The notes under the pieces: generated by a model
What the model saw: the letters and a program-made list of their open reading frames with translations, nothing else
Database searches by the model: none
Told to the model about the DNA's origin: nothing
Translations under genes and position numbers: made by a program
Origin: a virus
Lineage: Duplodnaviria; Caudoviricetes
Virus record (IMG/VR): IMGVR_UViG_3300048576_000582
Location: 1-47,494 of that record
Reading direction: 5' to 3' (one strand)
DNA: 47,494 nucleotides
In this document: positions 1-17,061 of the stretch, in pieces
How the letters are laid out: every line of letters starts with the position of its first letter
How positions within the stretch are numbered: the first letter of the stretch is position 1

Positions 1-213
1 TACTTTTCCGGCCGGGAGGAAACCGGGCTTTTTGGCGTTAACTTGCACCACGCCGGGGAAAATTCGGAGACTGTGGATAAATTCTCAGCAGGTTGCCAAG
101 TTTTTAAACGGCTCGCCGATTTCAACGAGTTTATGGCTCTGGCACGCCAGGCTCGCGACTTATGGGGAGATTCATTTACTTACTCTCTTTTATTGGAGGA
201 GGAGTTAGCGTGA
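1..213 (+). CDS. 3' end of YkuD/L,D-transpeptidase-like putative endolysin (partial; not in ORF track)
   Basis: Frame 1 reads YFSGREETGLFGVNLHHAGENSETVDKFSAGCQVF...LEEELA*; same His...SxGC motif as 44772-45356. Confidence 0.8.
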   Translation, partial: YFSGREETGLFGVNLHHAGENSETVDKFSAGCQVFKRLADFNEFMALARQARDLWGDSFTYSLLLEEELA

Positions 214-455
214 TTAAACAAATTAAGAATTGGCAAACCAGAACGCGAATAAAAGTATTTGTTTTCGCTCAAATTCCGGTTTTAATTTTAGCCGGTATTG
301 TTTTATGGGGATGGTTTCGCGGACTGTCAGATGCTCCGACCATGATGACGGCAATCATGGGTCCGGATGGTATTTGGGGTATTGGGACGGCGTTATCTGT
401 TGCACTTGAAAAGGCGTTAGCAGGTAAATCGTTTAAAAAGTCAGAGGAGGTTTAA
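210..455 (+). CDS. Putative holin
   Basis: GTG at 210 overlaps upstream TGA, with GGAGGAGG RBS; 1-2 TM segments, charged C-terminus, lysis context. Confidence 0.55.
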   Translation: MIKQIKNWQTRTRIKVFVFAQIPVLILAGIVLWGWFRGLSDAPTMMTAIMGPDGIWGIGTALSVALEKALAGKSFKKSEEV

Positions 456-457
456 AA

Positions 458-886
458 GTGTGCATAAAATTTATGTCGGTTTTATTATTGCTCTGCTTAT
501 TGTTATTGCCGGTTTGGGCGTCCAACTACGAAATGACAGAATTACAACGAACCGAAGCGATACAATTATTGCAGACCTTACAAAACAAAATTCAGCTTCA
601 ATTCAAAGAATTGCAGAGTTGCAAAAGCTCTATAACGGAGCTATCAATGAAACTTCAAGAATCAAGGCAGATTATCGAAGACTCGAAGCAAACTATAACG
701 AATCTCGAAAAATCATTGATGGAATCAGAGCAGGATTTAACGGAGTTATTGACGGCCTTAACGAATGCCAAGGAATCGTTGACAGAGTTACAAAAATTAT
801 CATCCAGTTACCAGAGGCAGATCCGTAATCTAAAAATACAAAGGAACTTAGCTGTATTGGTCGCAATTATGGCCGCTTTTTTATAA
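458..886 (+). CDS. Signal peptide + coiled coil + C-terminal hydrophobic anchor (spanin-like, frame A)
   Basis: 142 aa; PVWA cleavage-like site; homologue at 45369-45797. Confidence 0.7.
   Translation: MCIKFMSVLLLLCLLLLPVWASNYEMTELQRTEAIQLLQTLQNKIQLQFKELQSCKSSITELSMKLQESRQIIEDSKQTITNLEKSLMESEQDLTELLTALTNAKESLTELQKLSSSYQRQIRNLKIQRNLAVLVAIMAAFL
460..828 (+). CDS. N-terminal TM + coiled coil (i-spanin-like, frame B, nested in frame A)
   Basis: 122 aa; homologue at 45371-45739. Confidence 0.7.
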   Translation: MHKIYVGFIIALLIVIAGLGVQLRNDRITTNRSDTIIADLTKQNSASIQRIAELQKLYNGAINETSRIKADYRRLEANYNESRKIIDGIRAGFNGVIDGLNECQGIVDRVTKIIIQLPEADP

Positions 887-902
887 GCCCAAATCCTCCT
901 TT

Positions 903-931
903 ACCTCTCCCTCCGGGGGAGGTCTTTTTTT
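903..931 (+). terminator. Rho-independent terminator
   Basis: ACCTCTCC/GGGGAGGT stem followed by T run. Confidence 0.7.
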
Positions 932-1110
932 ATTTTGTGGGAGGAAAGAGGAAATCGGTAAAATTGACTATTGGAAATTATGGACGCGCCTATTAAAATA
1001 TATTTGTAGGATAAATATAATTTATTAGATACGGAGGGAGCAGGAAATGTCAAATATTAAATTCGGGATTATAATCCGATGATAGAAAAAACTTTAACCG
1101 TAAATGTCTT

Positions 1111-1641
1111 ATGCTTTTTTATTATTATTTGTTTTCCAATACAATAATGTATTATCGGCAAGCATTGCCTTTTGAAGAATTAACCGGCCATTGGATACAA
1201 ATTAAAGATGGTGATTTATATGCAATGGAGCTTTTTAAGCGTCATTACTCATATTATCATTATCGTGATGGGCGCATACATAATAGGTTTTGCGGTCCAG
1301 GAGAAAAGATAGTTTTAATTACCAAAGATGGGCGTGCTTTATTCGTATGGAGAAAGTTTAAACCAATGGATAATCAGTCCGGAGTTAATTGTGCAATATT
1401 TAGGAATGAAAGCGACACACTTTCTAGCGAGTTAATTTTAGAAGCCGAAAGGTATGCTTGGGAACGGTGGCCGGGAGAAAGACTTTATACGTATGTTGAT
1501 GCTTATAAAATTAAATCAACAAATCCAGGATATTGTTTTAAATGCTCCGGGTGGCAGGTTTGTGGCATAACTAAAAAAAGAAAATTGATTATTCTAGATA
1601 AAAGAGGCGATTTTTTTGAAAAAGCTTTGGCCTATCCTTAA
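1111..1641 (+). CDS. Phage protein, possible Mom-like GNAT-fold DNA-modification enzyme
   Basis: RHYS...FRNES...LSSELI...LYTYVD...NPGYCFKCSGW resembles the Mom/GNAT C-terminal motif; start may be 1147. Confidence 0.4.
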   Translation: MLFYYYLFSNTIMYYRQALPFEELTGHWIQIKDGDLYAMELFKRHYSYYHYRDGRIHNRFCGPGEKIVLITKDGRALFVWRKFKPMDNQSGVNCAIFRNESDTLSSELILEAERYAWERWPGERLYTYVDAYKIKSTNPGYCFKCSGWQVCGITKKRKLIILDKRGDFFEKALAYP

Positions 1642-2650
1642 GCATTACTTCATCCACATTTTTGCCCTGGTCCTCTGCATTTCGGCCACGTTTCACACAA
1701 TGCTCCAACTTTCGTCTGATCCGCTTTTTAAGATATACGCCGGATCCGGGGCAATCTTCGCCGGACTATTCGCCCAGTACCTCCGGGGCCGGGCGGCGGC
1801 GTATAGGAAGAGAAAATGGAAGTGGGACAGGTGGAAGGCGGTGGGGTTGTGGTTTATCGTTATCATTTATATAGTTATTTTCGAATTCATTTCAGCTTTC
1901 GGTGTGATTGTGTCCAAGGTCGATATGGAGGAGCAAATGTACCAGCAAACTTCCGATATACAAACTAATGTGAACACTGATTTGACCGATATTCGTAATG
2001 ATATTCGGGCAAAGAAAGAACAGAGGAATTTGGAGTTTAAGGACCATGGGCGCGGCAGAAAGTACAACCAGTTTGAGGACGAAATCAAGGCATTGGAGGA
2101 CCAGCGGAAAAAATTAGAGGTCAAGCTAAATGCCGTCTCAAAAACTTCAAAAATTGTTTCAAAAAGCGTATTTGCTGACCTGAATTTTAATACCGGAATT
2201 GAGGCTAAATGGTTTAAAATATCGATGTCATCGGCGCTTTTGTTGCTGATATTTTCGGCTCCACTCATGTTTCCATGGAAGATTTCCTTGGATGGTTTAG
2301 ATTGGGAAGCAAAAAAAAGCACTTCTCCAGATACAACGCAACCCGAAAAAGCGCTTTTAAATGATTCCTTGAGTCGAATAAAAGAGCTTTTGGAATTTAC
2401 AGAAGCGCTTTTTAGTGACTTTTCTGCCAAACTAAACGGGGAGTCAGCAATATCGAAAAAGACGGGAATACCAATAGAACGGTGCTTAGAATATCGGAAG
2501 TATTTAGATGAATTACATATTGGGGATGTTGCCGTAATCAATAAGCGTCAAGGCGGATCTGTTTGTAATTTCTCAAAAGATGAAGTACTGCAATTTCTTA
2601 AAAGCAATTACAGTAAGGGCTTTTTAGATACCCTAACAGGTATCGGGTAA
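1616..2650 (+). CDS. Multi-pass membrane protein with coiled coil and soluble C-terminal domain
   Basis: About 4 hydrophobic segments and heptad-rich middle. Confidence 0.6.
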   Translation: MKKLWPILKHYFIHIFALVLCISATFHTMLQLSSDPLFKIYAGSGAIFAGLFAQYLRGRAAAYRKRKWKWDRWKAVGLWFIVIIYIVIFEFISAFGVIVSKVDMEEQMYQQTSDIQTNVNTDLTDIRNDIRAKKEQRNLEFKDHGRGRKYNQFEDEIKALEDQRKKLEVKLNAVSKTSKIVSKSVFADLNFNTGIEAKWFKISMSSALLLLIFSAPLMFPWKISLDGLDWEAKKSTSPDTTQPEKALLNDSLSRIKELLEFTEALFSDFSAKLNGESAISKKTGIPIERCLEYRKYLDELHIGDVAVINKRQGGSVCNFSKDEVLQFLKSNYSKGFLDTLTGIG

Positions 2651-2793
2651 AAATGCAAAAAGGAATAAATTTACTTATGGTGTTTTAGCAGGTATTTTAA
2701 TTTAGCTTCAGCAGCTCCGCCGGCGACCAGGCCCGCGGTAAAAAGCATCAAAAGGCCAGCTAAAATACCCCTAAACTTTTAAGGAGGATAAAC

Positions 2794-3030
2794 ATGCCGC
2801 GTCAAAAAGGAACAGGGACAAAAGAAAAACTGTCCGTTACAGTCGATAAGGACATAGTTGATAAGCTAGACCGGATGTTCAAGGGGAGCGACCGGGGGGG
2901 AAAGTCGGAATTTGTAAATCGAATATTAAAGGTTGAATTGTTTCCATCTGCTAATGAAATAAAAAGCGCCGGGCCGGACCAATCGATAACGTTTGAGGTC
3001 AGCGCGGCCAGGAAGGAAGTTGAAAAGTGA
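2794..3030 (+). CDS. Ribbon-helix-helix (CopG/Arc-like) DNA-binding protein
   Basis: KEKLSVTVDKDIVDKLD...KSEFVNRIL; AAGGAGG RBS. Confidence 0.7.
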   Translation: MPRQKGTGTKEKLSVTVDKDIVDKLDRMFKGSDRGGKSEFVNRILKVELFPSANEIKSAGPDQSITFEVSAARKEVEK

Positions 3031-3356
3031 TTAATCCAATAAAAGTCACTTGTAGAAATCAAGATTGTATATTCAATGATGACCCGGAAATTACACAATT
3101 TCAAAGTGGAGTTGTTTTAATTTCCGGATGTAAGGCTATCCTGACTATTAGTAGAGAGCCGTTAGATATAGTAATAACTAAAAATGGGCAATGTGAAACA
3201 TTTATATCAAAAGAACCTTTTATGAATAATCACAATAAAACCATCGCGGAACTAAAAGAACTTATAAAAATTGGGTTTTGCGATAAATGCGGACATGGTT
3301 GTGATATAGGCATTCGTTGTGATATTAACAATGCTTTTAAAAGATTAGGAGAGTGA
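3027..3356 (+). CDS. Cys-rich hypothetical protein
   Basis: GTGA coupling; several Cys motifs. Confidence 0.55.
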   Translation: MINPIKVTCRNQDCIFNDDPEITQFQSGVVLISGCKAILTISREPLDIVITKNGQCETFISKEPFMNNHNKTIAELKELIKIGFCDKCGHGCDIGIRCDINNAFKRLGE

Positions 3357-3360
3357 TATT

Positions 3361-3651
3361 ATGGGTGAATGCACTATAACCATCCGAGATGGTAACCAAT
3401 GGCCGACATTTATTCACTCTCCCCACATCGGCTTTGACGATTGGTTCCGGGTAATTGTCAAAGAAGTGCGCTTTTTAGAAAAAGGGAAAAACGACTGGGC
3501 GGTGTGGGAGATAAATCCATTATATTTAGATGATTTGATTGGTTTTGCTAAGGATTGTTATGGAAACGGATTTAAATTGATTAATTTAAAGGAAAATCCG
3601 AAAGAACCAGAAGTTTTTCAAGAGTTTTCGGGGCAATTGGGATTATTTTAG
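3361..3651 (+). CDS. Hypothetical protein with C-terminal beta-clamp-binding-like motif
   Basis: Ends QLGLF; N-terminus MGECTITI resembles 12342 protein. Confidence 0.55.
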   Translation: MGECTITIRDGNQWPTFIHSPHIGFDDWFRVIVKEVRFLEKGKNDWAVWEINPLYLDDLIGFAKDCYGNGFKLINLKENPKEPEVFQEFSGQLGLF

Positions 3652-5352
3652 TTTTTTCCACCGTTCTCCATTCCATATCCTACAGATTTGGGCTTTAGAA
3701 ACATTATATTTTTTACATAACGATGTCAAGCTATCTGACCGATGCTCACGGATATATTGCACCTGTTCTTCCGTGAGCTTTGCATTTCGCCGGTTGTCCG
3801 GGTTAACTTTAGCGGGAAGTGTTGGTCTCCTACCGGACGTTTCTAAGGTTAGGCACGCTCCGCCTCCACCATCTAAATCCAAACCAAATTCACTATCAAT
3901 AAAACCATCTAAGATAGTGACTTTTTTAACATAGCTACTAATTATATTTTTACAGGCCTGAATATTATTCAAAAGGAAACTATTTTTGTCTTTTTCGAGA
4001 TACTTTTGAATCATTGATTCTGTTAATTGGTTTTCGACCTTTTTTATAGAACTATGGATTGTATTAGATAATATTTCTTTCTGTTGCTCTAGTTCCGATA
4101 ATGCATCTTTCATAGATGGATTATACATGCCATCGGATATGGCTTTAATTATATTTTGTATTTTATCCTCAACAACTCTCAATTCATTCCGAGCATATTT
4201 AATCTCAGCTTGTCTTTGCTGCACAATCTCATTGTTTTTTTCTTTAAGCATCTTCACTAGTTGGGTAATTCCTTCATCACTAAAAATAGCCTTTAAAAGC
4301 CATTTTACAACAAAACTTTCAATATATTCTTTGTTAACAGTTTTAGCGTCGCACGTTTTTAAACGTTTTTTATTATTGCATTCATAATAAGCATATATTT
4401 GCTTATTTCGCCCCTGTTTGGCTCGGTTGCCAACCATAACACCGTTGCATTTTCCACAATAAATCAGCCCCGTAAGTAAATATACTTCTTTAGCCTTGGC
4501 AGCTGCCGGGGCCTGTTTGCGTTTTTCCATAATTTTTTGAGCAGCTTCAAATTGTTCAGAAGTTATAATGGCCGGGATAACGCCATCAGCTTTAATTATT
4601 TGTTCGGCGTCTTTTTTAGCATGGTTATTACGTTTACCGTTTTTAGCTGATACAGCTTTATTAAAAATATAGATTCCTGTATATTTTTCATTACGTAAAA
4701 TTTCATAAACTGAAGTCTTCTGAAATTGTTTACCGGTTTTGGTAGTATATCCAGCTTGAGTTAAATGAATAATTATTTTAGGGTAGGATTCACCAGATAA
4801 ATACATATCGAAGATAATTCTTACTGCATCGGCCTCCGATTGATTAATAATCAATTTTTTATCAGGGCCTACGTCATAACCAAGCGGAGGTTTACCACCA
4901 GTGTGAAGTCCTTTATATGCATTTTCACGCATCCCCTTCATGACTTCCCGGGCAAGGTTTTTCGAATAATATTCATTCATAGCTTCAAGCATTGATTCAA
5001 GGATGATTGACTCCGGGGAATCATCCAACGGTTGGGCGACAGCTACTAGACACATATTATGATTAGTTAATTTACGCTTATAAATAGCGGAATCATAGCG
5101 ATTACGAGCAAAACGATCTAATTTGTGGACATAACAAAAATCGGCTTCAATTCTGCCGGACGATATATCCTCAAACATTTGTAAAAACAAAGGCCTATTA
5201 TCGGTAGTTGCCGATCGGGCTTCATCAATATATTCTTTAATTACTATAACACCTTTATTATCCGCATATTCACGAATAGCTCTTAATTGTGCGTCAATAG
5301 ATTCTTCGCGCTGATTATCTGATGAAAATCTAGCATATGCTATGGCTTTCAT
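3643..5352 (-). CDS. int: Large serine integrase, chimeric C-terminus beyond the att core
   Basis: YARFSS catalytic Ser, KLDRFAR, recombinase domain (PPLGY), Zn ribbon (CGKC...YYEC...C), coiled coil; GGGG encoded by att core. Confidence 0.95.
   Translation of the reverse strand: MKAIAYARFSSDNQREESIDAQLRAIREYADNKGVIVIKEYIDEARSATTDNRPLFLQMFEDISSGRIEADFCYVHKLDRFARNRYDSAIYKRKLTNHNMCLVAVAQPLDDSPESIILESMLEAMNEYYSKNLAREVMKGMRENAYKGLHTGGKPPLGYDVGPDKKLIINQSEADAVRIIFDMYLSGESYPKIIIHLTQAGYTTKTGKQFQKTSVYEILRNEKYTGIYIFNKAVSAKNGKRNNHAKKDAEQIIKADGVIPAIITSEQFEAAQKIMEKRKQAPAAAKAKEVYLLTGLIYCGKCNGVMVGNRAKQGRNKQIYAYYECNNKKRLKTCDAKTVNKEYIESFVVKWLLKAIFSDEGITQLVKMLKEKNNEIVQQRQAEIKYARNELRVVEDKIQNIIKAISDGMYNPSMKDALSELEQQKEILSNTIHSSIKKVENQLTESMIQKYLEKDKNSFLLNNIQACKNIISSYVKKVTILDGFIDSEFGLDLDGGGGACLTLETSGRRPTLPAKVNPDNRRNAKLTEEQVQYIREHRSDSLTSLCKKYNVSKAQICRIWNGERWKKLK
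3853..3884 (+). repeat. Left att junction (core plus attP arm)
   Basis: GCACGCTCCGCCTCCACCA 3853-3871 is 18/19 identical to 46209-46227; arm AAATCCAAAC 3875-3884. Confidence 0.9.
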
Positions 5353-5753
5353 GATTTTTCTCCCTTTTTAACATCTGCAATAGTCTGTATATATGTTTTT
5401 ATCAATTCCATCATAGTTTCAAATTCGGCTTGATTTAAATTATCATATGCCATACGCAATAGTCCAATTGCTTTAATGTAATATTCCGGCATTTCCTCTT
5501 CATCGATATAGGTGATATTAAAAGCAAAATCATCTGGTATATATCCGGCTATTTTCATTAATTCTTCATATGAAACACCCATATGTGGAGCGAGTGCCTT
5601 TAAGATAGAAGGAGATACTTTCTTTCTATCACCTGTTTCAATTCGCCATAACTCAACGGTACTTATATTTGCAAGCCTAGCCAATTCTTTTTGGCCGAGA
5701 TCTTTTTCCGTCCGCTTATTTCGTATAAACTCACCTATACTAATATTCTCCAT
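5349..5753 (-). CDS. XRE-family HTH immunity repressor
   Basis: GQKELARLANISTVELWRIETG; divergent from cro-like gene; no S24 peptidase domain. Confidence 0.85.
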   Translation of the reverse strand: MENISIGEFIRNKRTEKDLGQKELARLANISTVELWRIETGDRKKVSPSILKALAPHMGVSYEELMKIAGYIPDDFAFNITYIDEEEMPEYYIKAIGLLRMAYDNLNQAEFETMMELIKTYIQTIADVKKGEKS

Positions 5754-5797
5754 CGAATTATCCTCCTACTAAAAAAACATCGGTTATATTTGTTAAC

Positions 5798-5826
5798 ATT
5801 ATATAAAAAGTATTACCATTTGGCAA
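5798..5826 (-). promoter_or_regulatory. Leftward sigma-A promoter (repressor-integrase)
   Basis: TTGCCA-17 bp-TATAAT on minus strand. Confidence 0.75.
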
Positions 5827-5845
5827 TGCTTTTGCAACATATTTC

Positions 5846-5875
5846 TTGACAAACGGTAATTAAAAATGTTATACT
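5846..5875 (+). promoter_or_regulatory. Rightward lytic promoter
   Basis: TTGACA-18 bp-TATACT with extended -10 TG. Confidence 0.75.
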
Positions 5876-5917
5876 GAATTTGGAATTACCGAACGGAAAT
5901 AGACGTATCGTAAAGAG

Positions 5918-6133
5918 GTGTATATTTTGATTCCGAACAGTGAATATATCCGAGAACTATTATCAAAAAACGAATGGACTCAACATCAACTCGCTATAAA
6001 AGCCGATTTAACGCCTGCTACGATTAGCAGATTGCTATCTGGGAAACGAGGTGGAAGCCCTAAAACCATTGCGGCACTAATGAAAGCATTTCCCGAAGAA
6101 CCAATTGATAAGCTTTTTATTTTATCTGGATGA
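5918..6133 (+). CDS. Cro-like HTH protein
   Basis: WTQHQLAIKADLTPATISRLLSG. Confidence 0.85.
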   Translation: MYILIPNSEYIRELLSKNEWTQHQLAIKADLTPATISRLLSGKRGGSPKTIAALMKAFPEEPIDKLFILSG

Positions 6134-6165
6134 CTTCCGAACGGTAACGAACGTAATGTGAAGGA

Positions 6166-6351
6166 GTGATTGACTTGCCGTATGTACATTCGATCAAAAT
6201 TGACCGTAAAACTGGTGAGATCATCAACTATAAAATAACCAAGTCGGAAGAAAAAATTAACCATAAACCGTTAATCAATCTTTTATACAATCACATGGAA
6301 CGAGAAATAACAGAAAATCAATCGAAAGGAACTGATCCGCATGTGGACTGA
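6166..6351 (+). CDS. Small early protein (possible directionality factor)
   Basis: Position after cro only. Confidence 0.4.
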   Translation: MIDLPYVHSIKIDRKTGEIINYKITKSEEKINHKPLINLLYNHMEREITENQSKGTDPHVD

Positions 6352-6679
6352 ACAAATCATTTTCACGGCCACAAAAGAGGACCCTAAACATGAATATGTT
6401 TTTGAAGATCAGGAATTCAACGAAGTCGGTTGGTCTATGCAGCGAGGTTTTTCATTAATTGGGTTGTCCAGAGTAACAACCCAATTGACTGAAACTAATA
6501 GTTTAATTATTTGTGCATATGTTCGGGAAAGATTACCTGATTGGAAAATTGTCGCCAAAAGTTTTGTTTTTTATGATATTCAAGGAGATGCCACTAAAGT
6601 TGTTTTTTATCGCTATAAACTAGAAAACGGAATACTATCATCCTTTTTCAATTTTAAGCTTGAAAACATGAAAGAATAA
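6341..6679 (+). CDS. Hypothetical protein
   Basis: ORF in early operon with RBS. Confidence 0.55.
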   Translation: MWTEQIIFTATKEDPKHEYVFEDQEFNEVGWSMQRGFSLIGLSRVTTQLTETNSLIICAYVRERLPDWKIVAKSFVFYDIQGDATKVVFYRYKLENGILSSFFNFKLENMKE

Positions 6680-6837
6680 AGAGTTAATGTTGACTTCCTT
6701 AAACTCGAAGAAATTTCACCCCGGCCATTGCCCCCAGTGCGCCTTTATCAGCCGGGACCAAAAAGTATGCAAAGTAAATTGTTCACCCAAAGTTTTCGCT
6801 GGGTTATCCCGGCGCCGATGCCGGTGGTTCAAACCAA

Positions 6838-7119
6838 TTGAAGGAGGCTGAACGAATGTTTGCAAAACGCCACATCAGGAATGTCACCGAACTTACTTTG
6901 GACTTTCGCACCGGATGGCTATACGAAGGACCACCATCCGGACATCAAGTTTTATGTATGCCTATGAAAATAAATATACCGGAAGGGAAACCCGGATGGA
7001 AAGACGCTGTTTGTCCAGTTTGCGGCAGAGAATGTTGGGACAAGCCTATACCGGAAGGTTATAAAGCCTTATCCAGGATGTGTACCGAATGCTGTATTCG
7101 AGTCGTCATTCGTCAGTAA
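6838..7119 (+). CDS. Zn-ribbon protein (paralogue of 7246-7497)
   Basis: CMP...CPVCGRECW...CTEC. Confidence 0.65.
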   Translation: MKEAERMFAKRHIRNVTELTLDFRTGWLYEGPPSGHQVLCMPMKINIPEGKPGWKDAVCPVCGRECWDKPIPEGYKALSRMCTECCIRVVIRQ

Positions 7120-7245
7120 ACTATCGGGAGTTTTATGACTCCCACCCTGGACATCCCTTGTTCGGAAATCCGTGTTTGTCGGGGGAGGCAAACACGAGGG
7201 CGATGTCCAGAGTAGGAACCATAAAATTTAAAAGGGGGTCGGCGC

Positions 7246-7497
7246 ATGAGTGATGCAAAGATGGGGTTCGACAAAGAAACCGGTTTTGTTTTCAAAGATC
7301 TAGACGTAGACGATGGAACCCGTCTTATATGTATGCCTCTACAAAAAAACATCCGTGAAAAATTCGCAGGTGGAAAAGAAGTCCATTGTCCAAATTGTGG
7401 TCAAGCTTGTTGGGAAGTCCCGGTACCGGCAAAGATTTCGGCCGGTAAAACCATTAAAAAATTATGTACGGCTTGTGTGATTAAGTTTCGGGGGTGA
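7246..7497 (+). CDS. Zn-ribbon protein
   Basis: CMP...CPNCGQACW...CTAC. Confidence 0.65.
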   Translation: MSDAKMGFDKETGFVFKDLDVDDGTRLICMPLQKNIREKFAGGKEVHCPNCGQACWEVPVPAKISAGKTIKKLCTACVIKFRG

Positions 7498-7853
7498 AAT
7501 ATTTGACTCCAGTATATCAGGATATTACCAATACCAAAGTGGACCCAGGGAATAGTTTTCGGGCTTGTATTGCATCCGTTATGGACTTGCCCTTTGACAT
7601 GATACCCGAGATTGATTTCGCCAATGATAAATGGCTTGATATAGTCATATCATTTCTAAAGCAAAACGGTTATCAACTCTTTTGGGGTACCGCACGGCCA
7701 ATGCATGTCCAGTACTATTTTCCCCAAGGTTACAATTCTAAGAACATCCGTCATTCGGTAATACATACCTGCGGGGTACTCGTCCACAATCCCGATCCGG
7801 CCGGCGGAAATATCATGGGCGACGAATATTTTTGGATTGAAAAGAGGGGTTGA
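7494..7853 (+). CDS. Papain/C39-like fold protein, apparently inactive
   Basis: GNSFRACIAS...HSV...HNPDP; paralogue of 18343-18699. Confidence 0.5.
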   Translation: MKYLTPVYQDITNTKVDPGNSFRACIASVMDLPFDMIPEIDFANDKWLDIVISFLKQNGYQLFWGTARPMHVQYYFPQGYNSKNIRHSVIHTCGVLVHNPDPAGGNIMGDEYFWIEKRG

Positions 7854-8124
7854 CATGCCGAAGCAGGTGAGCTACGAAGCGCTGGAAGCGTCATTTCAAA
7901 AGAAATGTATGGAGTTTAAGGGGATACTGTTACAAAGCATCAACAAACGCCAGCGCCACCATTTTGATTTGCAAAAAAGTTTTTATACCTCCGCGCTCTG
8001 GGGGATGAAACAGCTTGTTTATGATATCGAATATCTGGATGGCTATCGGTCCCGCTGGCAACAATTCACCGATCATTTGCTGTACGATTTTGAAATGATT
8101 CGATATCCGGATGATGAAATCTAA
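7837..8124 (+). CDS. Hypothetical protein
   Basis: ORF; probable start ATG 7855. Confidence 0.5.
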   Translation: MKRGVDMPKQVSYEALEASFQKKCMEFKGILLQSINKRQRHHFDLQKSFYTSALWGMKQLVYDIEYLDGYRSRWQQFTDHLLYDFEMIRYPDDEI

Positions 8125-8136
8125 AATTTAATACAT

Positions 8137-8203
8137 TGCGGGGCGTGGAGGATTTGGGGAATACAAAAGCCCCAGACCGCCGGTTCGAATCCGGCCCTCG
8201 CGG
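8137..8203 (+). tRNA. tRNA-like element or pseudo-tRNA lacking a D arm
   Basis: Acceptor TGCGGGG/CCTCGCG; perfect T arm GCCGG-TTCGAAT-CCGGC; anticodon-like stem with 10-nt loop. Confidence 0.55.
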
Positions 8204-8313
8204 CTAAAAGAAAGTAGGTTTAGAATGAGTAAAAAAATTCAATTTAATCAAACGGCGCTTTTACGATTTGTGATTCACCAGGGACGACGCCCCTTTTACG
8301 ACGGTATTATCGC

Positions 8314-8751
8314 TTGTTGAAAATTAATGAAGAAGATTTGAAAAAAATCCAAAATGAAGCACCTCAAACGGACCTGATCATTGATCAATTACAAGTAATC
8401 ATTGGTGGATATAAAAGCATTATCGCTTCTCTATCGTCGATTGATCCAAATGATTCATTGATACAAAGTACTTACGATGTAAAGCTATTTGATGAAATTG
8501 ATGAAATGTCCAAACCGGATGATCATGAGAAATCAAAAACAAATATATCCACCCCGGTATCTGTTTTGTCGACGCCGATTGTTTCCGAATCGAAAAAATC
8601 AGAGCCATCAAAACCAAGTTTATCGCCAGTTCCTCCAGACATACAGCATCGAGGTTTGAAGTTTTGTATTGATTGTAAAGCTTATATTGCTTCAAAATAT
8701 TCCAAAGAACATTCTGCGGGTGATCATACCCGGGGATTGGTCAAAAAATAG
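8314..8751 (+). CDS. Hypothetical protein with C-terminal C2H2-like Zn finger
   Basis: CIDC...EHSAGDH. Confidence 0.5.
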   Translation: MLKINEEDLKKIQNEAPQTDLIIDQLQVIIGGYKSIIASLSSIDPNDSLIQSTYDVKLFDEIDEMSKPDDHEKSKTNISTPVSVLSTPIVSESKKSEPSKPSLSPVPPDIQHRGLKFCIDCKAYIASKYSKEHSAGDHTRGLVKK

Positions 8752-8924
8752 ATTGGGATTGTAATGGCGGGGTAACGCGCGATCATGTTTCTCCAAAAAT
8801 ATGATGTATTTTTTCAGGCCAAACTAAAATCCCGCCAGTTGAATTATAAGGAAGGTGATTACCAAAATGACAAACTAGTCCCCAAGCGTATCCCTACAAA
8901 AAACAAATTTTAGGAGGTAAAACA

Positions 8925-9038
8925 ATGACTGATTTTGGAAACGAACCAACCACGCAAGAGGCTCCGGTGGAGCTGACCGAACCGGGAGCCGCGACAACCC
9001 CGGCCAACATTCCGGATCATCCTGATTCCGGGGAGTAA
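8925..9038 (+). CDS. 37-aa acidic Pro-rich peptide (not in ORF track)
   Basis: AGGAGGT RBS; MTDFGNEPTTQEAPVELTEPGAATTPANIPDHPDSGE. Confidence 0.5.
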   Translation: MTDFGNEPTTQEAPVELTEPGAATTPANIPDHPDSGE

Positions 9039-9417
9039 CCATCCCTGAATTTCAACGAATCACCCGGGGGCCCGGCAGGGGGTCTGACCCCCGGGTTTTA
9101 AAATCAGATTGTCCCTTCAAAAAAATGCAACTCAGGTTGATGTATAGATTCGGCCGGATGGGGAAACCGGCCGCAAGTTGGCGGGTGGTGTTTATAGATA
9201 GTTTGCGAAGGTCGAGCGAAAATTATCTTAAAAGCGCCATACGGAATATCGCACTAGGGGGAGGGACCGGTGGGGGCTGCTTGCGATAGCTGAAGGCCCT
9301 GGCCGCCAATTTGAAAATAACCGGCGCAAGCCGTTTAGATATAACTATTGTGGAAGTAAGTGTAAATGATGGAGAACTTGGGAAATTTATTTATTTTGAA
9401 TCATAAGGAGGATAACC

Positions 9418-9570
9418 ATGAAAAAAAGAACCTGTGCTATTTGTAAGCATTCTGCGAAAGAGATTACTGCAAAACCATGCAAAACATGTGATTTAGGGGA
9501 ATATGACGAATTTCAACTTTCTATTTGGCGGTGGATAGTAACACTATTTAAAGCCTGGTTTGCGAAATGA
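9418..9570 (+). CDS. 50-aa Zn-finger protein (not in ORF track)
   Basis: AAGGAGG RBS; CAIC...CKTC; ATGA overlap with next gene. Confidence 0.65.
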   Translation: MKKRTCAICKHSAKEITAKPCKTCDLGEYDEFQLSIWRWIVTLFKAWFAK

Positions 9571-10211
9571 AAGCATTATCATTTTACGAACCATACGCCA
9601 GCTTATTAGCCATCGGCGCTAAGAAAATCGAAACCCGGTCCGGCCAAATCAAATATAAAAATTACCGGGGCCCCATTTTTATTCATACTTCGTCGAAAAC
9701 ACCCAAATGGGCTTTGAATTTATGTCAGGAAAATCCGTATATTAAATCGGATTTGGAAGCGGCGAATATCAAGGAATTCACCTTGGGGGCCATCATCGGG
9801 ATGGTTACAATTTACGATGTGATTTCGCTTGATGGATATAATCCCGGGGTACCCGAAATCCACTTTGGAGATTATTCCCCCGGCCGGATCGGGCTGCTGA
9901 TGAAAAACCCGGTGAGATTTCGCAAACCGATTCCATGGAAAGGTCACCAAGGACTGTGGAATTTTGAACAAATTATATTTGACTCGGTGGGTCATATGAT
10001 ATCCACCAAAAATGAAGATCACCTGCATGAGTTTGCCGGTAAACTCGGATTGAAGCGGGAATGGTACCAGGATAAACAGGAACATCCCCATTATGATCTT
10101 ACCACCCCCAGAGCCCAGGAACGGGCCCGGGAGGCCGGGGCCATCGAAGTCCACCCCATTGATTTACTTTGGATTTTAAAAGCAGTGAACGGGGGAAAAG
10201 TGAATGGCTGA
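9567..10211 (+). CDS. ASCH domain fused to a DUF4031-like domain
   Basis: KALS..EPYASLLAIGAKKIETR (ASCH GxKxxExR); GHM...LHEFAGKLGLKREWYQ...HYDL. Confidence 0.75.
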   Translation: MKALSFYEPYASLLAIGAKKIETRSGQIKYKNYRGPIFIHTSSKTPKWALNLCQENPYIKSDLEAANIKEFTLGAIIGMVTIYDVISLDGYNPGVPEIHFGDYSPGRIGLLMKNPVRFRKPIPWKGHQGLWNFEQIIFDSVGHMISTKNEDHLHEFAGKLGLKREWYQDKQEHPHYDLTTPRAQERAREAGAIEVHPIDLLWILKAVNGGKVNG

Positions 10212-11082
10212 AAATACAACGATATCCTGGACAGACCACACTTGGAATTGGGCTCAAGGATGCCCCAAAAATCCGGATAGTCAGTATTTTGGTTGCTTAA
10301 ACTGCTATATGTATCGGGATAAGAAACGATACGGTCAAGATCCCGTCACCGTGATTCAATCGAAAAATGATACGTTTTATTTTCCCTTGAAATCCAAAAA
10401 TATCAAACCCGGGGATAAGATTTTCACTTTGAGCTGGGGTGACTTTTTTAATGTACAAGCTGATCCTTGGCGCCCGGCCGCCTGGGATATTATTCGCAGA
10501 ACCCCACATTATGTATATTTGATACTCTCAAAATGGCCGGAAAATATTTTGAGCCGGCTTCCTGATGATTGGGGTTCGGGTTGGCCCAATGTTTGGTTGG
10601 GGGTAACCACCGAGAATCAGCAAATGGCTGATAAACGGATTCCTATTTTGTTACAAGTACCATCGGCGATCCGGTTTGTGAGTATTGAACCAATGCTTGG
10701 ACCGGTTAATTTAAGGCATATTCAAACAAGTGAAGTTGAAATCGATTCTTTGACCGGCGATCATGGCGTTATTAGACCACTCCAAGGAAGAAGTGATAAA
10801 AAACTTGATTGGGTAATCGTCGGTGGTGAATCCGGGAACAGAGCCCGGCCAACCCATCCGGATTTGGTCCGGTCAATTCGGGATCAATGCAAGGAATCTG
10901 GAACACCTTTCTTTTTCAAGCAATGGGGCAAATGGTGTCCAGGGGAAAAAGGGGAACTGTACTATAAGGAAACGATTACGTATACCGACGGTCAACCCAT
11001 GGTCAATTGTGGAACTGAGCTGTCAGGAAATTATCTGGATGGTAAGAAATATATGGAGTTTCCGAAGCCATGCCAGTTATAG
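10204..11082 (+). CDS. Phage Gp37/Gp68 (DUF5131) radical-SAM-like protein
   Basis: ISWTDHTWN..GC...GCLNCY; RFVSIEPMLG; WVIVGGESG; FFFKQWG. Confidence 0.88.
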   Translation: MAENTTISWTDHTWNWAQGCPKNPDSQYFGCLNCYMYRDKKRYGQDPVTVIQSKNDTFYFPLKSKNIKPGDKIFTLSWGDFFNVQADPWRPAAWDIIRRTPHYVYLILSKWPENILSRLPDDWGSGWPNVWLGVTTENQQMADKRIPILLQVPSAIRFVSIEPMLGPVNLRHIQTSEVEIDSLTGDHGVIRPLQGRSDKKLDWVIVGGESGNRARPTHPDLVRSIRDQCKESGTPFFFKQWGKWCPGEKGELYYKETITYTDGQPMVNCGTELSGNYLDGKKYMEFPKPCQL

Positions 11083-11947
11083 ATAACCCTATCCTCCGTT
11101 ACCCGGGGTCAAAATGGCGACTTGGGCTATGGTTAAGCGGGTATATTGCCCAAATTAAACACCATACATATTTGAACCCATACTGTGGTTCGTTAGCGGA
11201 TATTTTTTATAAAGACCCATCACCACTTGAAACCGTCAACGATATCGATAAAAATATTGTCAATCTTTTTAAAGTGATCCGCGACCATCCCGACGAACTG
11301 GCCAGGCTGATCGAATTCACTCCCTGGGATCGGTCGGAATACGAGGAAATTTTACCGGAATCTATTACCGCCGATAATACTGAATATTTTATCCGGACAG
11401 GTGAACCTTTGGAAGATGCCCGAAGAATGCTTATCCGATGTTGGATGTCATTTGGCGCGAAAACTGCTGATCGAAGTTCCTGGGCCCATAATATTCAAAA
11501 ACAAAAAAAGGTGGGGTTAACGCTCCACCAAAACGCTGGGATCGGTTACCGGAAATCATTATCAAGGCTGCCGAACGATTGAAACAACTTCAGATTGAAA
11601 ATTTACCCGCGCTAAAGTTGATTTCAAATTACCGGTATCCTGAAGTTTTAATCTATGCTGATCCGCCTTATCCATTGGAAACTCGGAGCCGGAGGCTATA
11701 TAAAAATGAAATGACAAATGCAGAGCATTTAAAATTATTGCGGTCCCTCCAGGAGCATCCGGGTCCGGTGATGATATCCAGTTATGAAAATGTATTGTAT
11801 ACTCAAGAGCTTTCGGGATGGCATTCGGAATACAAGAAAAATCAAACGGAACTTGGAAAAACTCGGATTGAAGTCCTTTGGTTTAATTCAGTGGCCGCCG
11901 TCCAAATTAAAGCACCAACTCAAATCAATTTAGACCTGGGGGTTTAA
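11070..11947 (+). CDS. Dam-like (D12 class) N6-adenine methyltransferase split by a -1 frame change
   Basis: RYPGSK, NPYCGS and NDID in 11070-11582; DPPY in 11579-11947; A_AAA_AAG at 11504-11510. Confidence 0.85.
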
Positions 11948-12336
11948 TGTTAAACGGTAAATATGTTCTCATATTTGACTATGACGGAACGATTGTAAGA
12001 AACCGCTGGCCGGAGCCGGGACCCTTCCGGATCGGAGCCCGGTTTTGGATCAAGTGGTTTAAAAAGCAGGGTCATTATTTAATACTCAATACTTGCCGGA
12101 CTTGCTTAAATAAGCATCCTTGTTTGTTATGCCTGGCTAAACATCAGCTTGAAAAAGCCGGTTTGAAGTTTGATTATTATAACGAAAATCATCCGGATCT
12201 TATCCGTCAATACGGCGTGGACTCCCGGAAGATTTCGGGAGACTGGTACTTTGATGACCTGGCCGGTTTTATGGGCTGGTGGACCGTGCCATTTATCCTT
12301 ATTTGGCTCAAAATAAAAAATCACCGGCGGGGGTGA
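11947..12336 (+). CDS. Capless HAD-family phosphatase-like protein
   Basis: DYDGT motif I; K...YFDD. Confidence 0.75.
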   Translation: MLNGKYVLIFDYDGTIVRNRWPEPGPFRIGARFWIKWFKKQGHYLILNTCRTCLNKHPCLLCLAKHQLEKAGLKFDYYNENHPDLIRQYGVDSRKISGDWYFDDLAGFMGWWTVPFILIWLKIKNHRRG

Positions 12337-12341
12337 TCAAC

Positions 12342-13289
12342 ATGGCAGAATGTCGGATAACAATTAACTCAGCTGATACCCGATTTCGGATCGAGGGCGA
12401 TTATCGACCGGATTTTTATGATCAGCTAAAGCAGCTGGTACCGAAAACAAATCGGGCATATTTTGATGATGAAAAATGTTGGACCATGGACACGGTATAT
12501 TTTAGCCAAATTTTCACCCTGGCGTATGATCATTATTCAAAAATCAGCCTGATTGAAAATGGCCGGGATCCGGAAGAATTTATAACCGGTAAATTTGAAA
12601 CTTCGAAACATTGCCGGATACGGTATGACGATCAAACCGCTTATATCGATTTTGAAACGAAATCCGAAAATTTTTTGTTTTGGTTATATCGCCATTTACC
12701 CCGGGAGCGCTGGACGGCCACCGGAGATGGCGGCCGGTTGGGTGGCATGTTCACCCACCAGGAAGCAGATTATGTATTTGGTATCGCCCAGGGCCAAGGA
12801 CTTGACCCGGACGAAAAAGACCCTGAAAAGCGGGATAAGCAACTAAAAAGCTGGTGTGAAAAAATTGATCTCCGGACGCATCCGCCGGCGGGACCCAGTG
12901 AGCCGATCAGCTCGCCGAATCGATCCGGTCCGGTACCGGAGCCAGCGCCAACACAAAATCATCCGAAATGCCGGATAATTTATGATAATGGCTCCATATC
13001 GCTGGAGTATGAACCAATTGATCCAATTTTTGATTATTGGATAGCCAAAAAAATTAATTCTGATCGGTTGCGCCAGACCGGACGGGGAATCGAATTGGGG
13101 TGTTCCGTCACCATTGGTGAGGTTGATTATATCAAAGAAATTTTAGTCAGGCCCTGGCCGGGGCAAAAATTAGGATGGACGATTGATGAAAAAGTTTTTA
13201 CGGTTACACAATCAGCTCCGGTACCTTTAGAAATACCGGTTAATAAAGAAGTTGATTGGAAGTCCGTTGGCCAAATGAGTTTATTTTAA
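12342..13289 (+). CDS. Protein with three repeated alpha/beta domains and C-terminal QMSLF
   Basis: ECRITI / HCRIRY / KCRIIY repeat starts; clamp-binding-like end. Confidence 0.55.
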   Translation: MAECRITINSADTRFRIEGDYRPDFYDQLKQLVPKTNRAYFDDEKCWTMDTVYFSQIFTLAYDHYSKISLIENGRDPEEFITGKFETSKHCRIRYDDQTAYIDFETKSENFLFWLYRHLPRERWTATGDGGRLGGMFTHQEADYVFGIAQGQGLDPDEKDPEKRDKQLKSWCEKIDLRTHPPAGPSEPISSPNRSGPVPEPAPTQNHPKCRIIYDNGSISLEYEPIDPIFDYWIAKKINSDRLRQTGRGIELGCSVTIGEVDYIKEILVRPWPGQKLGWTIDEKVFTVTQSAPVPLEIPVNKEVDWKSVGQMSLF

Positions 13290-13342
13290 AGATTATTAAA
13301 GGGGACAACCCTTTTAATAAAATAACAAAAGGGGATAAAACA

Positions 13343-13636
13343 GTGGAACAAAATGAACAGTATGTAATTGTGAGGACTTATTCAGCGGGGGTTTTTGCGG
13401 GGGAATTAAAATCCCGTGATGGTCAAGAGGTCGTACTGACTAACGCCAGGAGGCTCTGGTACTGGTCCGGGGCAGCGTCATTATCCCAATTAGCTGTTGA
13501 AGGAACCTCTCGACCGGAAAGTTGTAAATTTCCTGTCGCCGTACCGGAAGTAACTTTGTTACAAGCAATTGAAATTCTATCGGTTACGGATGCAGCTAAA
13601 GCATCCATCGAGAAGGTGACGGCATGGAGAGCTTAG
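13343..13636 (+). CDS. Conserved phage protein (DUF6948-like)
   Basis: YVIVRTYSAGVFAG...NARRLWYWSGAASLSQLA. Confidence 0.75.
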   Translation: MEQNEQYVIVRTYSAGVFAGELKSRDGQEVVLTNARRLWYWSGAASLSQLAVEGTSRPESCKFPVAVPEVTLLQAIEILSVTDAAKASIEKVTAWRA

Positions 13637-13833
13637 AGAAAATTTCCGGTTACGGTTCCGGTTCCGGTGACGGTGACGGTGACGGTTCCGGTTACGGTTC
13701 CGGTGACGGTGACGGTTCCGGTTCCGGTTACGGTGACGGTGACGGTTCCGGTTACGGTTCCGGTGACGGTGACGGTTCCGGTTCCGGTTACGGTGACGGT
13801 GACGGTTCCGGTTACGGTTCCGGTGACGGTTAA
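13624..13833 (+). CDS. Gly-rich (G-D/S/Y)n peptide encoded by hexamer repeats
   Basis: GGTNNC units 13648-13830 with 60-bp higher-order period. Confidence 0.6.
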   Translation: MESLEKISGYGSGSGDGDGDGSGYGSGDGDGSGSGYGDGDGSGYGSGDGDGSGSGYGDGDGSGYGSGDG

Positions 13834-13931
13834 TCAATTATGAAAGATTGGTGATTTCAATGGTTCGCGGTCCTCCGTGTATTTAATACGTACATCCAAA
13901 TAATTAAATCTATTTCAAGGAGTGGACTAAC

Positions 13932-14735
13932 ATGGCTGAATGCCAAATTCAGCAAGAGGGATGGCATTATACCATCGTTGAAAATGCAGTGCTGGACGAT
14001 TTGGAACTAAGCAAAGAAGCTCGGTTATTATACGTTTATCTTAGCCGGTTTGCAAATAGCGCGGATAAAAAATGTTGGCCATCCATTGATACTTTGGCAA
14101 AACTGTCCGGTATAAGTGAACGTAAGGTCCGGTACTGTTTAAAAGAACTAGAAACCCGGGAGTACATACGAAAGGTCTATCGCCGGGAAGGTTCCAAGAA
14201 TTTAAGCAATTTATATATATTGCGATACATTCCACCCAAAGTAACTTTTGATGAATCTTCCACTCAAGAGGTGGTGCACACTGTGCAGGAGGGTACTGCA
14301 CCACATGCACCCGAGGTGGTGCACACTGTGCAGGAGGGTACTGCACCACATGCACCCGAACTAAAGCTATTGAACTATAACCATAAAGAACTAAATTATA
14401 CCCCTGAATTTGATTTTTTTTGGAAAGGATATCCAAAAAAAATTGAAAAGATAAAAGTTTTTAAATGTTGGAATACCCGGATAAAGGACGGCTATACTCC
14501 TGAACAGATGATCACTGCGGCTAAAAAATATTTAACATCACTTCATGAAGGGACCGAACTGCAATACATAAAGAATCCCAGTACATTTATAGGACCAAAC
14601 AAACCATTTTTGGATTACTTAGATGGTTTACCCCCGGAGCCTCCAGATGGAGAAACAATCATAACAGATGTGGATATAGAGCTTGAGTCATATTTAGCGA
14701 GGTGTCGCGGAGATGCAAGGGAATCTGGAAGCTGA
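13932..14735 (+). CDS. Phage replication initiator (N-terminal HTH)
   Basis: CWPSIDTLAKLSGISERKVR; FDFFWKGYPKK...YIKNPSTFI; upstream of helicase. Confidence 0.85.
   Translation: MAECQIQQEGWHYTIVENAVLDDLELSKEARLLYVYLSRFANSADKKCWPSIDTLAKLSGISERKVRYCLKELETREYIRKVYRREGSKNLSNLYILRYIPPKVTFDESSTQEVVHTVQEGTAPHAPEVVHTVQEGTAPHAPELKLLNYNHKELNYTPEFDFFWKGYPKKIEKIKVFKCWNTRIKDGYTPEQMITAAKKYLTSLHEGTELQYIKNPSTFIGPNKPFLDYLDGLPPEPPDGETIITDVDIELESYLARCRGDARESGS
14268..14400 (+). repeat. Putative replication origin: 2 x 45-bp tandem repeat plus AT-rich tract
   Basis: 14268-14312 is identical to 14313-14357; TGCA iterons. Confidence 0.65.
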
Positions 14736-16026
14736 AAATTATTTGATTAGTTCTGTTATGAATTACGGTTTGGAACTCTTTGATGATATCCAAGATCAAG
14801 TTTTGACAGATGATTTTGTCAGACCCCAAAACAAGCTTTTTTGGGATTCGTTTAAAAAATGCTCAGAGGATCGTCAACCAATTGATCCAGTGGGGGTTTT
14901 TGACAGCATACCCCAAAACAAAAAGGATTCGTCTGGGTTAACTCATGCGGTCTGGGCCGAGATGATGAGATACTATCCAGACATCAAACGAGTCCCGGAT
15001 TACATTGGTATTGTTAAAAAACATAGCTTATCTAGGCAAAGCATATTTCAATATCAGCAGCGAATACAGCAGTTACAGAACGGAGCAGATCCCAACGACG
15101 TAGTTTCGCAAGGTATCCTTGAAGACTCTGAACGACTAGATAAAAATTCCAGACAAGAAAAAATACAGATGATTGGTGACGGTATATTGGATTTTGTGGA
15201 TGATTTGGAGGCTAAAATACGGGCTCAAAAATCAATCACTGGATTACGAACAGGGTATGACGCTTTGGATTATATTCTTGGTGGACTGGACCCGGACACC
15301 ATAAATATTTTGGCAGCTCCACCGGGTACCGGAAAGACAACCAAGGTTATCAATATTGCCAGGACTGTCGCCATCAATTTCGGTCCAGTATATTTTGCTT
15401 CACTTGAAATGTCCAAGGAGCAGCTGCAAGGAAAATTTCTTGCTCTCGAAGCCCAGATGGATTCCATGGCATTCCGAAATGTAAATCTTCTGAAACTGGA
15501 AGATATTGATCATTTAACTCAAAAAGCTTCAAAACTAAGCAATTATCCAATTATTATTGACGACTCAACGGAAACCAAGGCATCGGATATTTTAATTCGC
15601 GGCCGTAAATTGAAAAAAAAATATGGAATCAAATTGATAATCATCGATTTTTTTCAATTGATGAAGCCTGAATATGAAATCCATGGTAATTCCAGGGCTG
15701 AATTGAATGGTTCATTACGAGTACTTAAAAAAATTGGCCGTGAATTAAGAATTCCAATTTATCTAATATGTCAACTTAACCGTGATATTTACAAACGGAA
15801 AGACCCCAAACCGGTATTTTCGGATTTGAATGAAACCGGGAATTTAGAGCAAGCAGCAAGTTCAATTCAATTTCTCTACCGGCGTAACGACGACCCGGAA
15901 TGGGTAATCAGGGATAATATAGCTAAAAATCGCTATGGAATCAAGGACAAAGATGTCCTATTCGATTTCTTTCCTGAAAAATCAACTTTTAAACTAGCGG
16001 GTGCAACCAAGACTAAGACCTATTAA
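14713..16026 (+). CDS. dnaB: DnaB-like replicative helicase
   Basis: APPGTGKT, SLEMS, IIDFFQL, QLNR, AKNRYG. Confidence 0.92.
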   Translation: MQGNLEAENYLISSVMNYGLELFDDIQDQVLTDDFVRPQNKLFWDSFKKCSEDRQPIDPVGVFDSIPQNKKDSSGLTHAVWAEMMRYYPDIKRVPDYIGIVKKHSLSRQSIFQYQQRIQQLQNGADPNDVVSQGILEDSERLDKNSRQEKIQMIGDGILDFVDDLEAKIRAQKSITGLRTGYDALDYILGGLDPDTINILAAPPGTGKTTKVINIARTVAINFGPVYFASLEMSKEQLQGKFLALEAQMDSMAFRNVNLLKLEDIDHLTQKASKLSNYPIIIDDSTETKASDILIRGRKLKKKYGIKLIIIDFFQLMKPEYEIHGNSRAELNGSLRVLKKIGRELRIPIYLICQLNRDIYKRKDPKPVFSDLNETGNLEQAASSIQFLYRRNDDPEWVIRDNIAKNRYGIKDKDVLFDFFPEKSTFKLAGATKTKTY

Positions 16027-16203
16027 TAGAAAATAGTAAAACGGTTTAAAACATGGTTATTACTCATTTATAAATTATCTATAAAATGGAGTACATTAAA
16101 TTAAAAAATAGGATGTTTTAGAACCATTGATTTATCAAGGTTTATAAATAATCAATGAATTTAATAGAATCTAAGATATAGATAATTCGATAAAAAAATC
16201 AAG

Positions 16204-16235
16204 TCGTTTTATCAATATTGACAAGTGTTTCAAAA
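16204..16235 (+). repeat. Left 32-bp inverted repeat
   Basis: TCGTTTTATCAATATTGACAAGTGTTTCAAAA; 31/32 match to reverse complement of 17085-17116. Confidence 0.9.
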
Positions 16236-16326
16236 ATTTGATCATTCACGATCCGACAGTACCGACAAAAAGCAACGATTTCCTAATTATTAACAAATTT
16301 ACTAAAATGGAGGATAAATAAAATCT

Positions 16327-16584
16327 ATGGGAAACCAACCAGCAACTCAACCGGAATCCATATTAAGAGATCGACTAGAGAAATCTTGGTCGTCTCTTGG
16401 GGAAGCACTATCCAACATTCGGTCAATTAATGGAAAGCTATTTTCCCCATCGCCATGCAACACAATCCCCGGGGAAAAAATTAGTAGCGTAGACACTTCT
16501 AGTGTTGAGAATTTAGTTTCTTTAATTGAAACAGCCGCTCAACAAATCGAAATGGAATCAAGACAAATAAGCAATAGAATTTAA
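16327..16584 (+). CDS. Small helical hypothetical protein inside the inverted-repeat cassette
   Basis: GGAGG RBS; two amphipathic helices. Confidence 0.6.
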   Translation: MGNQPATQPESILRDRLEKSWSSLGEALSNIRSINGKLFSPSPCNTIPGEKISSVDTSSVENLVSLIETAAQQIEMESRQISNRI

Positions 16585-16599
16585 AGGGGTGTTAGGTTT

Positions 16600-17061
16600 A
16601 TGAGCATAAAAGTTTTAGCTAAAAATCAATTGAATGATTCAATGACCATCGATTTTTGTTGCGGTGATAAAGAATATCGCCTCGAACCTGCTGAAAGTCA
16701 AGAAATCGAAATCCAAGACGGTGACTGCATGTACTTTGATATAGTCGGCAGAATGGCAAGACCAGAAGGCCAAAGAGCCTATCCGATACCAAATGGAGAA
16801 TGGAAGCCCTTCGTATATGTTCAAGATGATAGCGTAACTTTCATCGGCCAGGGCGGTCCCATCAAAGAAATCGGAGTCAATGGATGCCAGATTGATGACC
16901 TTATCGAGTTTGCCCGGGATGTACTGCAAGTATTTAATCAGCGGGTTCCTTGTCGGGAAACTAGCATGATGATCACCAAGCTGGATGAAGCGCTTTTATG
17001 GAGCATGAAACGGAAACAGGAACGGGAAAATCGCCAAGTTGAAGGGACAAGCCAGGTATAA
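16600..17061 (+). CDS. tad1: Tad1/Acb2-family signal-sponge anti-defence protein with N-terminal extension
   Basis: QGGPIKEIGVNG...DDLIEFARDVL...CRETSMMITKLDEALLW...RKQERENRQVEGT matches the Tad1 helical hairpin as I recall it. Confidence 0.75.
   Translation: MSIKVLAKNQLNDSMTIDFCCGDKEYRLEPAESQEIEIQDGDCMYFDIVGRMARPEGQRAYPIPNGEWKPFVYVQDDSVTFIGQGGPIKEIGVNGCQIDDLIEFARDVLQVFNQRVPCRETSMMITKLDEALLWSMKRKQERENRQVEGTSQV

Follow-up and report, generated by a model that had tools for sequence, protein, structure and literature searches.

The arrangement of an att site inside an integrase gene, including the tandem case, was already described in 2011 for the tmRNA-targeting DsiB of the Dehalococcoides ssrA islands (McMurdie et al. 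2011, PMC3146451; this and the other papers cited here by PMC number are quoted from the parts of their text available to us). DsiB is a serine integrase of approximately 540 aa that is encoded on the reverse strand beside attL. The 3' end of dsiB always overlaps attL, and a stop codon is reached only in ssrA or in an adjacent tandem island. The authors proposed that DsiB works fully on the circle or when it follows a neighbouring island, and not otherwise (PMC3146451). In the myxophage Mx8, attP lies inside int, and integration gives the gene a new 3' end, by which activity is altered and not abolished (PMC6070905). The Mx8 integrase is listed among the tyrosine recombinases (PMC4383910). The archaeal suicidal integrases of SSV1, pTN3 and pT26-2 also carry the att site within the integrase gene, and chimeras from co-resident elements have been proposed (PMC8371274). 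For the SPbeta integrase SprA, directionality is set at the zinc domain and the coiled coil, near the C-terminus. Its directionality factor flanks F532, which is 13 residues from the end of the 545-aa chain (SPbeta numbering only; PMC11722253). According to the Islander paper of 2015, serine recombinases were not known to target tRNA genes (PMC4383910). In the literature open to us, largely without subscription papers, we found no study in which tail variants of a serine integrase targeting tmRNA were tested. The available parts of PMC13626063, PMC12884075, PMC11795197, PMC11530663 and PMC8270828 likewise hold no test of such tails.

We analysed a window of 47,494 bases, which is a single metagenomic virus record (IMGVR_UViG_3300048576_000582; Duplodnaviria; Caudoviricetes). 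By layout its integrase gene is like dsiB as described in the available text: the frame crosses att at its 3' end and runs into a likely tandem neighbour, or in relatives into an RNA gene. In contrast to the islands, the element here is a complete-looking 42-kb phage, and the borrowed tail is a helix-turn-helix (HTH) with a predicted fold. The six-gene module of the Dehalococcoides islands (DsiB, DsiA, RecF, ParB, Mom and a large protein) is not present beside the integrase. With Mx8 it shares the att site in the integrase gene and a C-terminus that depends on the state of the element, but Mx8 has a tyrosine recombinase with a tested effect, whereas the integrase here is known by its sequence. 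The SSV-type enzymes, as far as described in the text available, are tyrosine recombinases that are split into inactive N- and C-terminal halves. Here the enzyme is of the serine family, and the exchange affects no more than a short tail past the last domain. The SPbeta integrase has the same order of domains; unlike here, its attP lies between sprA and sprB and not inside the gene, and its target is a protein gene (PMC8270828). What this record appears to add is a clean tandem example with a borrowed domain that is predicted to be folded. The circle tail predicted here is confirmed by a natural relative, and the sequences further suggest upkeep of the family's phage tail at the protein level.

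The integrase gene, its att cores and the crossover

The gene is that of a large serine integrase, and its reading frame crosses its own att core. The features of the locus are as follows.

1..3651, plus strand: end of a likely upstream prophage, with lysis-type and accessory genes; the last gene, 3361-3651, converges on the integrase tail
3643..5352, minus strand: large serine integrase gene in its tandem-state form, 569 aa (Pfam, phrog_95, model and structural match)
3643..3858, minus strand: foreign tail of 71 codons (residues 499-569), a 24-codon linker followed by the HTH
3834..3859, plus strand: att arm of the likely upstream prophage (7/25 dyad pairs; no pairing with P')
3860..3871, plus strand: left att core, 12 bp; its minus strand encodes G495-G498
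3872..3886, plus strand: the main phage's own att arm P', within the integrase coding sequence; pairs with the arm before 46216 (15/25)
3860..46215, no strand: main prophage, 42,356 bp between the cores
46115..46150, no strand: hairpin flanked by A and T runs, a predicted two-way terminator that contains the circle-state stop
46134..46215, minus strand: the phage's own 26-codon integrase tail, including att arm P; apart from the gene until excision
46216..46227, plus strand: right att core, 12 bp
46242..46270, plus strand: terminator-like hairpin beyond the right core (z -2.7)

The protein has a catalytic resolvase domain with the N-terminal serine motif, a recombinase domain and a zinc ribbon with a coiled coil. 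The Pfam families Resolvase, Recombinase and Zn_ribbon_recom all score above cut-off, and the ORF matches phrog_95 (integrase). Residues Y6, R8 and S10 and four cysteines are invariant across 40 sequences. Among solved proteins, the SPbeta integrase is the best match by sequence as well as by structure (9dxh; E 2.5e-22 for the model). In the model, the catalytic, recombinase, zinc-ribbon and coiled-coil parts end at approximately residue 490. The sequence-only reading had assigned the core, read on the minus strand, to a run of four glycines at residues 495-498, and the 569-aa ORF (5352-3643) bears this out.

The 12-bp core occurs exactly twice in the 47,494 bases, with 0.001 further copies expected by composition. 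Beyond one mismatch 5' of the core, another 6 bases match between both copies. In the genomes of four relatives, tmRNA ends in the same 12 bases as the right core. A search for tmRNA and tRNA genes in the record found none. The hairpin at 46242-46270 fits, as would be expected, the displaced 3' flank of a host RNA gene, which would be that of tmRNA. The likely target of the main phage's integrase is the host tmRNA gene, at its 3' end; some relatives use tRNA genes. Between the cores are repressor, replication, terminase, portal-type, capsid, tail and holin genes, and the repressor and a Cro-like gene come after the integrase gene.

The site of a serine integrase spans about 50 bp, is roughly symmetric and is cut at its centre. 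In the attP reconstructed in silico, dyad symmetry peaks at 3860-3861, where 15 of 25 positions pair (background 6.4 +/- 2.3; P 0.00065 against random window positions), and the site thus has the dyad symmetry about a predicted 2-bp crossover that an attP of about 50 bp should show. The existing junctions give 7/25 (left) and 10/25 (right). The two bases are the first two of the core and lie in codon 498. We scored nine natural attP-type loci, one further locus being a hybrid and one unscorable; the same centre ranked first in six (one tie) and second in three. By this symmetry, 3860-3861 is the likely crossover dinucleotide. The crossover would then fall inside the integrase frame, and not outside the coding region, the outcome that was to count against a rewritten tail. 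With the centre at this position, the arm that follows the left core is the partner of the arm that precedes the right core, and what lies to the left of 3860 is a foreign arm. This foreign arm (3834-3859) has six core-adjacent bases in common with the right arm of the main phage. Since the frame crosses the core, every recombination would replace all residues after 498.

Joining the cores in silico gives an integrase of 524 aa with its stop at 46136-46134, and the result is the same for the three crossover points tried. The hairpin that contains this stop has 15 pairs (z -6.2 and -7.5 on the two strands). The length, the stop and its place in a terminator are as first read from the sequence alone, and so are all the other numbers of that reading. 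The closest relative (P0002, 79% identical) naturally bears the predicted circle tail, with 21 of 26 tail residues the same, compared to 395 of 498 in the body. The AlphaFold model of this natural phage-type tail has no confident structure (pLDDT 39-50), and the folded enzyme ends at residue 489. The main phage's own tail is divergent and fits the tail profile of the family poorly (14 of 500 shuffles were as good), and the tandem tail with the HTH does not fit it (55 of 500).

Several other features of the record were observed. A 9-base direct repeat lies at 46268-46288, just past the tmRNA-type terminator, in a segment of 34% GC (phage, 43%). The repeat resembles the arm-type sites of tyrosine integrases, and a third element may start here. 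To the right of the prophage (46616-47494) is a 292-aa gene with a histidine-kinase-like ATPase domain. Within the phage, a small ORF holds a long array of 6-base units that encode a Gly/Ser/Asp/Tyr-rich repeat (13647-13833). The replication initiator gene contains an exact 45-base tandem duplication (14268-14357), possibly origin iterons, and the tail-fibre gene contains three 132-base tandem repeats that are 89-95% alike (43426-43820).

Integrase tails in the relatives

Identity to the best integrase matches stops at about residue 498. We binned the tails of the best 120 of 5845 matches into classes. Sixty are RNA-antisense and 38 are phage-type (this bin includes the query, and 2 of the 38 look mis-binned). 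The others are 9 + 7 in another frame or orientation and 6 that are cut or unclear. Twenty-five of 401 genomes provided 26 places, in 18 of which the frame enters a tmRNA (11) or a tRNA (7) on the opposite strand; in the remaining eight it is broken, stops short, is attP-like or has no RNA gene nearby. Two loci (L020 and L021) agree at 490 of 490 residues without a base change, and part directly after the core, where one continues in a phage-type tail and the other in a tmRNA-like one. P0014 and P0015 form another pair with the same integrase and two tails. On the tree the tail classes are interleaved, with 24 changes among 96 rows (counted without a shuffle control), as expected for states and not for lineages.

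Four of the five complete genomes examined have a second core, at a distance of 20-72 kb from the tmRNA. In G043, no att pair was found with the pattern used. Circle frames rebuilt from four complete genomes are open for 17-34 codons, and the family motif described below is clear only in G144. A scan of viral contigs with a 19-base arm and core pattern gave no hit, and a single-protein locus search gave 0 of 13 viral and 1 of 78 genome stretches. On the sequences compared, the layout with the att site inside the integrase gene is a family trait. The record holds no tmRNA or tRNA gene, so the third tail, which the integrase would have next to an RNA gene, is deduced from these relatives. That recombination rewrites the tail of the integrase, as was claimed from the letters alone, agrees with the crossover placed by symmetry in codon 498, with relatives found in both states and with the natural homologue carrying the predicted circle tail.

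Five members of the family (P0040, P0077, L006, L068 and L075) read the core on the RNA gene's own strand, and a proline run replaces the glycine run. Their att site is inverted relative to the gene and at the same place in it; two retain the tail motif. One scaffold (L196, G260:C32, 2417-2615) links, across an N gap, two junctions of one integrase, one with tmRNA and one of attP type, as if the sample contained the integrated form as well as the circle. The deposited integrase of Moorella phage MCACPph1 (OR602863.1, L208) ends in an antisense-tmRNA tail, that is, the integrated form was annotated as the phage protein.

A motif, YR-H/R/P, is found in 21 of 37 phage-type tails and in 0 of 60 RNA-type tails (best 120 of 5845 matches). 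Its distance from the crossover is 38-69 bases, which puts it outside the att arm. Its codons vary synonymously in 12 distinct loci, and it recurs in members with a different frame or orientation of the core. The position beyond the arm, the synonymous changes and the recurrence across frames and orientations argue for selection on the peptide. The family's phage-type tail looks selected as a protein, judging from these alignments. The RNA-type tails range from 4 to 95 residues, so that an independent function for them is unlikely. The tail profile found no counterpart in 18 more distant relatives. We also considered whether the phage tail adds to the zinc domain a third strand that ordinary relatives have too; neither the profile test nor the AlphaFold model supported this.

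The borrowed tail and the probable upstream neighbour

In the tandem state, the frame continues for 71 codons past the core. The model of this tail has three helices at residues 528-568 (pLDDT about 76) behind a disordered linker. There is no in-frame ATG, GTG or TTG in codons 499 to 530. The first in-frame start, GTG, comes at codon 531 within helix 1 and is preceded by no more than a weak ribosome-binding motif. The description of an in-frame HTH tail of 71 aa with no start codon of its own is therefore correct. The tandem-state stop overlaps the converging gene (3361-3651) by 9 bases, and no terminator-like site was found after it.

The tail matches phrog_59 (E 8.9e-6). With tblastn it finds 26 phage records, and most of the annotated ones are endonucleases. 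It aligns with the C-terminal HTH of HNH homing endonucleases, from an N-A/S-K-L-T motif to the final tryptophan. Unlike in those enzymes, no HNH nuclease domain precedes it; it is joined to the att arm instead. Its structure matches are HTH-type proteins, under the bar for naming, and its best match in the feature atlas (0.75) is below the useful bar. Word-index searches, which are of limited sensitivity, found only the query as an integrase with this tail among 6 candidates of 312-996 aa and 7 of 126-2000 aa, and tblastn with the tail in 191 loci found nothing. The HTH is likely a 3' remnant of an HNH endonuclease gene that was turned into the integrase tail of the upstream phage, and its transfer to the main phage's integrase is likely a by-product of tandem insertion. 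The chance of such a remnant being in frame and stop-free across the 24 linker codons is approximately 0.08, so earlier use by the upstream phage's integrase is suggested, not compellingly. The HTH fusion itself is probably incidental.

On the simplest reading, the left 3.8 kb belong to a related prophage that occupies the same site, and are its right end; the junction then consists of the P arm of one phage and the P' arm of the other. The ORF at 458-886 is 39% identical over 142 aa to the main-phage ORF at 45369-45797, and each has an overlapping second ORF; from position and layout we infer that both are lysis (spanin-like) genes. The integrase of the upstream prophage lies outside the 47,494-base record, and either order of insertion of the two prophages gives the same junctions. 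In run X1, ten short pieces lie on both sides of the left junction, eight of them at 99% or more; none of the ten crosses it, and the right end is without read coverage.

One other contig (G402) carries two integrases that are 47% alike and have the same 127-base end, and this end pairs better with one (17/25) than with the other (11/25); the second junction is at the contig end, so this may be an assembly overlap. The proposal that tandem lysogeny shuffles domains between phages stands in part. A tail is handed over in this record and in G402, but the case for a selected process is weak, since the HTH tail is found in no other integrase and resembles the end of an HNH endonuclease gene. Two further genomes (G144 and G270) were considered as intact tandem pairs and rejected, since only arm-like remnants and no integrase lie beyond attR. 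In both (L193 in G144, L192 in G270) the sequence to the right of attR resembles the arm of an earlier integrase of the family, as relics of older insertions would.

Possible roles of the tail exchange

We propose the following course. The free circle would make an integrase with its own 26-residue tail and a terminator. Insertion at the tmRNA gene would restore the last bases of the RNA and swap the tail, and beside the tmRNA the integrase would end in a variable antisense-tmRNA stretch. A second phage in the same site would swap the tail again, as in this record. The catalytic, DNA-binding and coiled-coil parts all precede the switch, and every form of the integrase is thus likely folded. 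We favour, with somewhat more confidence than doubt, a reading in which the phage-type tail is the selected, fully working form of the C-terminus when the phage arrives. Without it, the resident integrase would be damped or retuned, on the precedent of Mx8. This functional reading draws on the conservation of the tail and on the precedents of Mx8 and the SPbeta directionality factor, and by these analogies regulation by tail swap is plausible. Work by Abe et al. in 2021 reportedly dealt with the extreme C-terminus of SprA.

The swap may instead be neutral, attP having drifted into a dispensable linker after the last strand, so that any tail works and the conservation of the tail reflects the att arm and the terminator. 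That all domains end by residue 490 agrees with this, as do the tails of 4 to 95 residues from the glycine run tolerated by integrated forms, the disordered start of both modelled tails and the first 7-8 tail codons, which are the att arm itself. It is nonetheless a reading that we hold to be rather unlikely, because the YRH-type motif lies beyond the arm, varies only synonymously and persists through changes of frame and orientation, and because the circle tail is as conserved against P0002 as the body is. Less probable again is control at the RNA level, in which insertion would separate the gene from its terminator and set its transcript head-on against the tmRNA or the neighbour's gene, with less integrase mRNA as the result and the change of peptide secondary. 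Such control would suit the circle-state stop within a strong hairpin, the tandem-state stop with its 9-base overlap and no terminator after it, and the relatives whose integrase genes overlap tmRNA in antisense; it leaves the conservation of the tail at the protein level unexplained, and the members in opposite orientation (L006, L068 and L075) are not antisense to the RNA gene.

A bolder form of the functional reading seems to us just as doubtful as control through the RNA. In it, the tail would be an interchangeable regulatory module acting on the surface used by the directionality factor, phages at the tmRNA site would reprogram each other by tandem insertion, and the upstream HTH would be a new DNA-binding domain that changes which prophage can excise. 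It is very improbable that the left 3.8 kb are an assembly chimera, with no tandem neighbour and an HTH fusion absent from cells. The record is a single metagenomic one and no contig among the runs searched spans the junction, but the join is exactly at the core, the foreign arm shares its six bases with the family arm, a diverged version of the terminal lysis-type gene of the phage sits at the left end, and there are documented tandem insertions at tmRNA (PMC3146451).

The damping or retuning of the resident enzyme by loss of its phage-type tail, which we favour, would have consequences beyond this phage. If the tails differ in activity, a state switch would be built into serine integrases in addition to the directionality factor, and the DsiB hypothesis of 2011 could be tested with natural pairs of the same enzyme with two tails. 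The family shows serine integrases using tmRNA and tRNA genes, contrary to the statement in the available text of the 2015 database paper (PMC4383910). A sequence of this family that comes from a chromosome has an antisense-tmRNA tail or a borrowed one (RNA-type in 60 of the best 120 of 5845 matches), and integrases mined for genome engineering may therefore be cloned in the wrong form.
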